Notes: generated by a model not told the origin, from the sequence alone. Positions 29,038 through 29,194 are shown, numbered from the stretch's first letter. The stretch: 64,000 nt of DNA from an uncultured Acidimicrobiales bacterium (GCA_963794805.1 CAWCFL010000016.1:37455-101454), one strand, 5' to 3'. A program made the numbers and translations.

Positions 29038-29089
29038 GACGGCGCCGACGGGTTGACATCGCCGACCGGCACGGGCACACTGGTCGGCG

Positions 29090-29125
29090 ATGTCCCGCTC
29101 CGCCACGCTCCTTCTGCTTATGTAG
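29090..29125 (+). CDS. leuA leader peptide MSRSATLLLLM (four consecutive Leu codons CTC CTT CTG CTT)
   Basis: ATG TCC CGC TCC GCC ACG CTC CTT CTG CTT ATG TAG. TTGACA (29053) -N17- CACACT ends 8 nt upstream with no SD, so a leaderless transcript is likely. It is followed by a 10-bp perfect stem GGGCAAGCGC/GCGCTTGCCC (29125..29155) and then a terminator. Confidence 0.65.
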   Translation: MSRSATLLLLM

Positions 29126-29159
29126 GGCAAGCGCTGCGACACCTCGCGCTTGCCCGCAC

Positions 29160-29194
29160 CCCCCGCCGTACGGCCGGGGGTTCTTCATTTTTCC
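29160..29194 (+). terminator. Attenuator terminator: GC-rich hairpin (CCCCCGCC..GGCCGGGGG) followed by TTCTTCATTTTTCC
   Basis: Hairpin plus T-tract located between the Leu leader peptide and the leuA RBS (GGAG at ~29240). Confidence 0.6.

Follow-up and report, generated by a model that had tools for sequence, protein, structure and literature searches.

A stretch of 64,000 nucleotides (nt) from an uncultured Acidimicrobiales bacterium (GCA_963794805.1 CAWCFL010000016.1:37455-101454; 72% G+C), referred to below as the 64-kb window, carries a real and conserved regulatory element upstream of leuA. The whole element spans positions 29053-29192 of the plus strand and consists of a promoter-like site, a short leader open reading frame (ORF) that contains consecutive leucine codons, a hairpin (P1) and a second, terminator-like hairpin (T). 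We consider it likely that the element is a ribosome-mediated, leucine-responsive transcription attenuator of leuA. A leader of the same design with isoleucine codons precedes cimA in the same window, and in neither family of leaders was the mutually exclusive antiterminator helix found that is a feature of classical attenuators. An earlier note on this DNA had proposed a leucine-codon leader and terminator before leuA; the elements are present as described there, and its functional reading is essentially right.

A leucine-codon leader upstream of leuA

The gene behind the element was identified as leuA, encoding 2-isopropylmalate synthase, by its matches to TIGR00970 and NF002991 (Table 1). 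The leader ORF encodes the peptide MSRSATLLLLM*, with its four Leu codons close to the C-terminal end. The first pair of P1 uses the G of the leader UAG stop codon, 2 nt separate P1 from T, and T is followed by the T-rich tail TTCTTCATTTTT, which runs to 29192. The perfect 10-bp stem, the GC hairpin and the T-rich tail that had been noticed earlier were confirmed in both sequence and fold. RNA covering 29083-29200 folded into just P1 and T and was 3 standard deviations more stable than shuffled sequences, and T is predicted to act as an intrinsic terminator. A simple consensus promoter/terminator scanner called neither a promoter nor a terminator in the leuA leader, because the -10-like hexamer matches TATAAT at 3 of 6 positions and the T stem is interrupted by a mismatch.

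Conservation of the leader was assessed in a sample of 80 loci fetched with LeuA, 70 of which had, no more than 400 nt upstream, a short ORF in which three or more Leu codons follow one another. The layout seen in the window recurs before leuA in 35 related loci, which with few exceptions belong to metagenome-assembled genomes (MAGs) of the Acidimicrobiia type. It consists of three or four Leu codons, a single additional codon in every case (usually Met or Thr), the stop codon, P1 starting on the final stop nucleotide or up to 2 nt beyond it, and T. The nearest relatives of the window LeuA (~80% identity) are from Ilumatobacteraceae/Acidimicrobiia MAGs. Loci from Actinomycetes in the sample carried a different, known type of leader (MW.ALLLLSRRDEA*), that of the actinobacterial LEU element and LeuL leaders discussed below. 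Also, proteobacterial MAG loci with a yeast-type LeuA (L061, L068, L072, L073, L076 and L080) had upstream Leu-run short ORFs that were longer and of a different type, such as ...AISLLLLSFP* and ...LALALLLLSGP*.

The window leader and the 35 related loci were combined in an alignment of 36 leuA leaders (A1). In 35 of the 36, P1 begins at nt 2-5, on the stop codon or immediately past it; 0-5 nt link P1 to T; and a T-tract follows hairpin T in all members of the family. Three of the Leu codons never differ at positions 1 and 2 across the 36 sequences and do so at position 3, and variation confined to third positions is the signature of a translated codon run. Outside the run, the peptide sequence is not conserved.

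Analysis of A1 with RNAalifold recovered P1 and T alone. Compensatory changes were present at 6 of 8 consensus pairs in P1 (94.7% of cells paired) and at 5 of 8 in T (97.6% of cells paired); for the two hairpins overall, 96% of cells were paired and double changes occurred in 11 of 16 pairs. The number of double-change cells was 71, compared with 14 +/- 4.5 in shuffles, and controls with a slid register were 46-52% paired. A covariance model built from A1 returned a single site in the window, at 29093-29189 (66.6 bits, E ~1e-14); as the window sequence is among the 36 in the model, this match shows uniqueness and not independent detection. As a separate observation, many of the P1 loops in A1 (for example L004-L009, L017 and L019-L036) share a CAUAUC or CACAUC motif that is absent from the window, where the loop reads UGCGACACCUC, and from its closest relatives. 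No partner sequence for this loop motif was found.

The codons of the run are themselves biased. CTT makes up 6 of the 225 Leu codons (2.7%) in five confidently identified genes of the window, as compared with 2 of the 4 leader Leu codons and 39% of run codons across the leuA family, and in 28 of 36 leaders the Leu run ends with it. Attenuators typically have rare regulatory codons, an example being the CUA codons of the Escherichia coli leu leader.

Promoter-like sequences are found at a consistent distance from the leader ORF. In 31 of the 36 leuA leaders a NANNNT hexamer lies 5-10 nt before the in-frame leader start codon. The form TANNNT occupies this place in 19 (background 1.1%, measured at start-codon triplets in the same DNA), and TTGAC[A/G/T] is located 16-19 nt ahead of the -10-like hexamer in 20. 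Such spacing would place the transcription start site at, or a few nt before, the start codon. In the window, CACACT is separated from the leader ATG by 8 nt (GGTCGGCG), the corresponding distance at the cimA leader being 9 nt, and a 5' untranslated region (UTR) of 1-3 nt appears as likely as a strictly leaderless start. There is no GGAGG-like Shine-Dalgarno (SD) sequence ahead of the leader ATG. Leaderless transcription of a leuA leader peptide was detected by RNA sequencing for Streptomyces lividans LeuL1 (MRFGLLLLSCRGEGL; PMC8079986), and a four-Leu leader lies ahead of leuA in Corynebacterium glutamicum (PMC4046766). Given this precedent, leaderless or near-leaderless expression of the present leader is plausible. 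The proposal in the earlier note that both ORFs would form leaderless mRNAs has indirect support from the -10 spacing, which is compatible with a 5' UTR of 0-3 nt, and is less secure in its strict form at distances of 8-9 nt.

A perfect 13-bp inverted repeat (GACATCGCCGACC, 29055-67, and GGTCGGCGATGTC, 29082-94, with a 14-nt spacer) extends from the -35 hexamer to the leader AUG. It is not conserved in the relatives, and in two loci unrelated inverted repeats also cover the leader start codon (L017, 10 bp; L041, 7 bp). The repeat may have arisen by chance, mark where the transcript of the upstream gene ends, or serve as an operator. Were it an operator and the real control site, the ORF could be fortuitous and the hairpins could bind a protein or form the terminator region of the gene upstream. 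The extent of the repeat and the end of a same-strand saccharopine-dehydrogenase-like gene at 29037 would both suit such an arrangement, which we nevertheless find hardly credible: the repeat is not kept in relatives, the ORF is conserved in 36 leaders with codon-type substitutions and a fixed position relative to P1, and an amino-acid-matched Ile run precedes cimA. Moreover, when all fetched loci were scanned by architecture alone, the runs detected at such sites were exclusively of Leu or Ile.

An isoleucine counterpart upstream of cimA

The leader before cimA, on the minus strand of the window, shares the architecture of the leuA leader, as the earlier note had suggested: a codon run, one further codon, the stop codon, a hairpin beginning on the stop codon and an adjacent terminator-like hairpin (Table 1). 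Here the run consists of Ile codons, the last of which is ATT, a codon used for none of the 114 Ile residues in five window genes. The architecture is general across cimA loci. An Ile-run leader was present in 42 of the 70 metagenomic cimA loci with upstream DNA; other loci had variants such as IILIT, FILIP and IIVIS, and in those remaining cimA lies directly behind another gene.

An alignment of 36 non-redundant cimA leaders (A2) showed the same phasing as the leuA family, so that the layout is kept across related genomes in 36 leuA and 36 cimA leaders. Exactly one codon follows the Ile run in all 36 cimA leaders, P1 starts at nucleotide 2-4 of the stop codon, this stop is UAG in 35 of 36, and the linker between P1 and T is 0-6 nt. 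P1 covaries, with double changes in 8 of 9 pairs. The stem of the cimA T hairpin (GCCGCCC/GGGCGGC; 1639-1659 in the window) is almost invariant even though the CimA proteins are 62-86% identical and the adjacent P1 covaries freely, which suggests that this hairpin may be under a sequence-specific constraint beyond pairing. The leader also points to cimA (the citramalate route) serving isoleucine synthesis in Acidimicrobiia, under the control of Ile-tRNA charging.

The earlier note had gone further, suggesting from a nearly identical upstream layout and post-hairpin motif that the leuA and cimA leaders are a duplicated module re-coded for Ile versus Leu. The two leaders of the window do align better than shuffles (z ~4.3; promoter part 4.9), with the similarity concentrated in functional words (TTGAC, ATG, TAG and the T-tract). 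The word they share, TGGTCGRCGATG, is ~10-fold over-represented across the window (18 near-matches against 1.85 expected), and one exact copy lies within a gene, at 15473. The discriminator sequence is not conserved among orthologous leaders, and in a run of the leuA-leader covariance model on the 64-kb window the cimA leader gave no match even at E<=10. Given this miss by the model and the wide over-representation of the shared word, we do not take the two leaders to be homologous; what they have in common is a shared design, and shared descent is not demonstrated by it.

Table 1. Positions of the leader elements and associated genes in the 64-kb window
Feature	Position	Strand	Sequence or structure	Basis
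leuA leader, -35-like hexamer	29053-58	+	TTGACA; 17-nt spacer to -10	sequence
leuA leader, -10-like hexamer	29076-81	+	CACACT (NANNNT)	sequence; putative promoter function
leuA leader, ORF	29090-29125	+	ATG TCC CGC TCC GCC ACG CTC CTT CTG CTT ATG TAG; 11 codons + UAG	sequence
leuA leader, four-Leu-codon run	29108-29119	+	CTC CTT CTG CTT	sequence; putative regulatory role
leuA leader, hairpin P1	29125-29155	+	perfect 10-bp stem, GGGCAAGCGC (29125-34) with GCGCTTGCCC (29146-55), 11-nt loop	fold
leuA leader, hairpin T	29158-29181	+	6 bp, 1x1 mismatch, 3 bp, loop GTAC; terminator-like	fold
Terminator-to-leuA spacer	29193-29251	+	C-rich and G-poor; contains the leuA SD	sequence; spacers of relatives likewise C-rich
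leuA SD	29242-45	+	GGAG	sequence
leuA	29252-30886	+	2-isopropylmalate synthase	TIGR00970, 785.6 bits (cutoff 697.4); NF002991, 827.8 bits
cimA	17-1606	-	ATG at 1606	TIGR00977, 683.6 bits
cimA leader, whole	1763-1629	-	Ile-run leader	sequence, fold
cimA leader, promoter-like site	1763-58 and 1740-35	-	TTGACG, N17, TTGAAT; 9 nt from TTGAAT to the ATG (1725)	sequence
cimA leader, ORF	1725-1690	-	MTATHTIIIIR*	sequence
cimA leader, hairpin P1	1690-1664	-	starts on the G of UAG	fold
cimA leader, hairpin T	1659-1639	-	9-bp GC hairpin; 4-nt linker from P1	fold
cimA leader, tail	1638-1629	-	TTTCATTTCC	sequence

Proposed coupling of the two hairpins and the search for an antiterminator

In the proposed mechanism for leuA, transcription would begin at the AUG (29090) or 1-3 nt before it, and a 70S ribosome would translate the SD-less ORF of 11 codons. 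When charged tRNA-Leu is scarce, the ribosome would stall on the four Leu codons, of which CUU, present twice, is rare. For a ribosome whose A site holds the final Leu codon, the first pair of P1 (29125) would lie at about +12, counted from the first nucleotide of the P site (29114). By the geometry of the ribosomal mRNA channel and helicase, a helix has to be open as far as about +11, again relative to the P site. This would put the first P1 pair at the entrance of the mRNA channel, so that P1 should survive every stall on the run, abutting the ribosome. When leucine is plentiful, the ribosome would advance two codons to the UAG, unwinding about 6 of the 10 pairs of P1 and destroying it. RNA polymerase would meet T and its T-tract 2 nt past P1; termination there would release a leader transcript of ~95-100 nt, and read-through would produce the leuA mRNA.

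The best reading of P1 is that it reports whether the ribosome has cleared the Leu run. Because P1 alone differs between the two ribosome states and no alternative pairing to T was found, we infer that the folded form favours read-through; the melted form would permit termination, and P1 would amount to a non-overlapping "antiterminator". This link, by which folded P1 lowers termination at T, is above all others the conjectural step of the scheme, and we propose it tentatively, at a little short of an even chance. It could operate in either of two ways. P1 backed by the stalled ribosome might impede, sterically or kinetically, full closure of the T stem within the RNA exit channel, or else P1 might compete for the 2-3 boundary nucleotides G29156-A29158.

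Several points weigh against leucine-responsive attenuation with this coupling. The evidence is drawn from sequence, and the -10 hexamer CACACT is weak and lies 8 nt from the AUG, which does not assure a strictly leaderless start. When the leader was folded with a ribosome placed at the second Leu codon, the last Leu codon or the stop codon, T formed in every case. Duplex-energy tests of all segment pairs against shuffles, in the 36 leuA and 36 cimA leaders, gave no enriched pairing able to compete with T when the leader ORF carries a ribosome. With no alternative pairing enriched, read-through that depends on stalling is not explained by thermodynamics and therefore hinges on the parity argument, that is, on P1 being what differs between the ribosome states. 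We know of no experimental precedent for a non-overlapping adjacent hairpin that blocks an intrinsic terminator. Finally, mutations in the leuA leader of Streptomyces coelicolor, as these are summarised in PMC1262725, had effects inconsistent with classical attenuation.

The search for an antiterminator covered both families. Consensus folds of the leuA and cimA leaders contained P1 and T only, with no antiterminator helix, and when the nascent RNA was folded at the stage where T still lacks its 3' arm, the pairings obtained were all small and clade-specific. In the leuA family, pairing between the P1 3' arm and the T 3' arm was depleted. Pairing between the Leu-codon region and the T 3' arm was enriched in the same family (z = -4.3); as a regulatory pairing it was rejected and is regarded as a composition effect, because the ribosome covers this region in both states and the cimA family has no counterpart.

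These results bear directly on the possibility that the element is a classical alternative-pairing attenuator in which a small antiterminator was missed, with P1 extended at its base by U29121-G29122-U29123 pairing to G29156-C29157-A29158 and so stealing the bottom pairs of T. In other clades, a mini-hairpin of 3-4 bp stacked on P1 could sequester part of the T 5' arm. The UGU:GCA extension, which uses nucleotides at the base of T, does appear in nascent-RNA folds of the window and its closest relatives, mini-hairpins that use T 5'-arm nucleotides directly 3' of P1 occur in many relatives, and the leuA family shows a slight enrichment for pairing between the 5' arms of P1 and T (z = -2.5). Against this, the disputed nucleotides pair only with the T-tract and not in the GC core of T, T is intact in the full-length constrained folds, the candidate pairings vary by clade, and none is enriched in the cimA family. 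We therefore view a missed antiterminator as unlikely.

An experimentally supported precedent for such an arrangement exists in the ilvBNC leader of C. glutamicum, where the antiterminator hairpin adjoins the terminator and overlaps it by only 3 nt, as supported by mutagenesis (PMC11857589). This three-hairpin "fast" attenuator resembles the leuA leader in being actinobacterial, in having an SD-less leader peptide and in placing a stall-formed hairpin contiguous with the terminator. The ilvBNC helices share a GCC trinucleotide of the terminator GC core, whereas P1 stays clear of the GC core of T, and the third ilvBNC hairpin, an anti-antiterminator over the leader ORF, has no equivalent in the consensus fold. 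Boundary competition of the ilvBNC kind is conceivable in the window, where G29156-A29158 can join either P1 or T; these nucleotides lie outside the core pairs of T, and the pattern does not hold generally.

The failure to find an antiterminator would also agree with a post-transcriptional role, in which T is a constitutive partial terminator and the stalled 5' ribosome and P1 protect the read-through mRNA from 5'-end-dependent decay, or the terminated leader RNA or the peptide acts in trans. The ORF would be at the very 5' end of the RNA, and the literature on Sinorhizobium documents attenuator-derived small RNAs and leader peptides with trans functions. Such a role leaves unexplained both the P1-T linker of 0-6 nt and the phasing of P1, one codon and a stop after the run, in two separate families, and the peptide outside the run is not conserved; we rate it as improbable. 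A broader form of the attenuation model would be that Acidimicrobiia use a distinct two-hairpin attenuator without an antiterminator, in which a ribosome-backed, phased P1 blocks T without competing pairs, in a Leu version at leuA and an Ile version at cimA. We raise this generalization as a possibility and regard it as rather doubtful.

Relation to known leaders and genomic setting

Like the classical attenuators (E. coli/Salmonella leu, trp and his; RF00512), the leuA leader combines a short ORF carrying a run of cognate codons, rare ones included, with an intrinsic-type terminator upstream of the first biosynthetic gene, and in both cases the position of the ribosome is thought to set read-through. 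It departs from them in having no 2:3-type antiterminator overlapping the terminator, in the location of the codon run at the C-terminal end of the ORF with a hairpin starting on the stop codon, and in the lack of an SD and probably of a 5' UTR. Rfam models, including Leu_leader (RF00512), gave no match at gathering thresholds anywhere in the 64-kb window, and at E<=10 the surroundings of both leaders gave only chance-level matches to unrelated small-RNA models.

A closer comparison is with the actinobacterial LEU element and LeuL leaders (PMC1262725, PMC8079986; C. glutamicum cg4015, PMC4046766), which occur in the same phylum at the same gene and likewise place 3-5 Leu codons in succession within a short, promoter-proximal ORF that has no SD. 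Between the Leu run and the stop, the LEU element has a further 5-6 codons, compared with one codon and a stop before P1 and a canonical terminator here. The LEU element, described upstream of leuA in most Actinobacteria, forms a base stem between the Leu codons and the leuA SD, with a pseudoknot, and has no typical terminator (PMC1262725). Translational control of this type, in which the Leu run pairs with the leuA SD and a stalled ribosome frees it, would be possible on paper in the window, as GCUCC (29106-10) can pair with GGAGC (29242-46) at -9.6 kcal/mol. However, in the 17 loci with a defined leuA start the pairing between Leu run and SD did not surpass that obtained after shuffling the SD region (z = -1.3), the partners are ~130 nt apart with a terminator between them, and any CUCC codon pairs with any GGAG. 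The base stem was thus not enriched, the structure it would enclose is P1 plus the terminator, and pseudoknots were not searched for explicitly; LEU-type control appears very unlikely for the leader described here.

Mycobacterial polycysteine ORFs reportedly act without a canonical intrinsic terminator and affect downstream translation. The leuA leader differs from them in possessing a canonical terminator. It resembles these leaderless short-ORF attenuators (bioRxiv 10.1101/834739) in using runs of a single codon type to sense amino-acid supply upstream of biosynthetic genes.

In a full-text literature search of limited coverage, neither a leuA leader from Acidimicrobiia nor a cimA leader with Ile codons was described. 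Of interest in the system is the missing antiterminator together with the nucleotide-precise phasing common to two amino-acid-specific versions. Textbook leader-peptide attenuation is defined by competing hairpins, and the variant found here, in two families and 72 leaders, has no competing helix. If the proposed logic is true, the position of a ribosome would be passed on to RNA polymerase without alternative base pairing, and this would bear on the long-standing puzzle of actinobacterial leaders "lacking attenuator components" (Seliverstov 2005, PMC1262725). From this layout, regulation of leuA and cimA can also be recognised and annotated in Acidimicrobiia, which are poorly studied and known mainly from MAGs.

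Regarding the genomic setting, the neighbours of leuA are the saccharopine-dehydrogenase-like gene upstream and a gene for an SPFH/flotillin-like protein downstream, so that leuA seems to stand as a single gene under a control region of its own. From the end of the T tail to the start of leuA there are 60 nt. The spacer between terminator and gene is strongly C-rich and G-poor, as it is in L006, L014 and L037, and some relatives have a repetitive spacer, with CCAGCCAGAC repeats in L037; an unstructured region for translation initiation and a tract like those for Rho utilisation are two possible roles. The leader ORF and leuA share a reading frame (29090-29254) in which the UAG at 29123 is the sole intervening stop. 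Reading through this stop would yield an N-terminally extended LeuA, and the shared frame is probably a coincidence at the G+C content of the window. Programmed frameshifting or read-through across the leader UAG was considered, and dropped for want of supporting evidence.

Two further features were noted on the minus strand upstream of cimA. About 500 nt upstream of the cimA leader lies a canonical intrinsic terminator (2268-2304), composed of ATCGCCCGTCGGC-GCAA-GCCGGCGGGCGAT followed by TTCCGTTTGT; the ORFs between it and the leader had no Pfam or NCBIfam match. Just upstream of the cimA leader promoter there is a conserved non-coding block of ~120 nt (1764-1900), which contains three DnaA-box-like words (GGTTGTCCACC, CTGTCCACC and TTGTGCACA), a repeated ATCCCCAG and 2 of the 5 window copies of TGTCCACC. 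This block aligns with cimA-upstream regions at two metagenomic loci without an Ile leader (L129:1290-1500 and L131:325-535), and it could represent a DnaA-box cluster, an oriC-like region or the site of a regulator.

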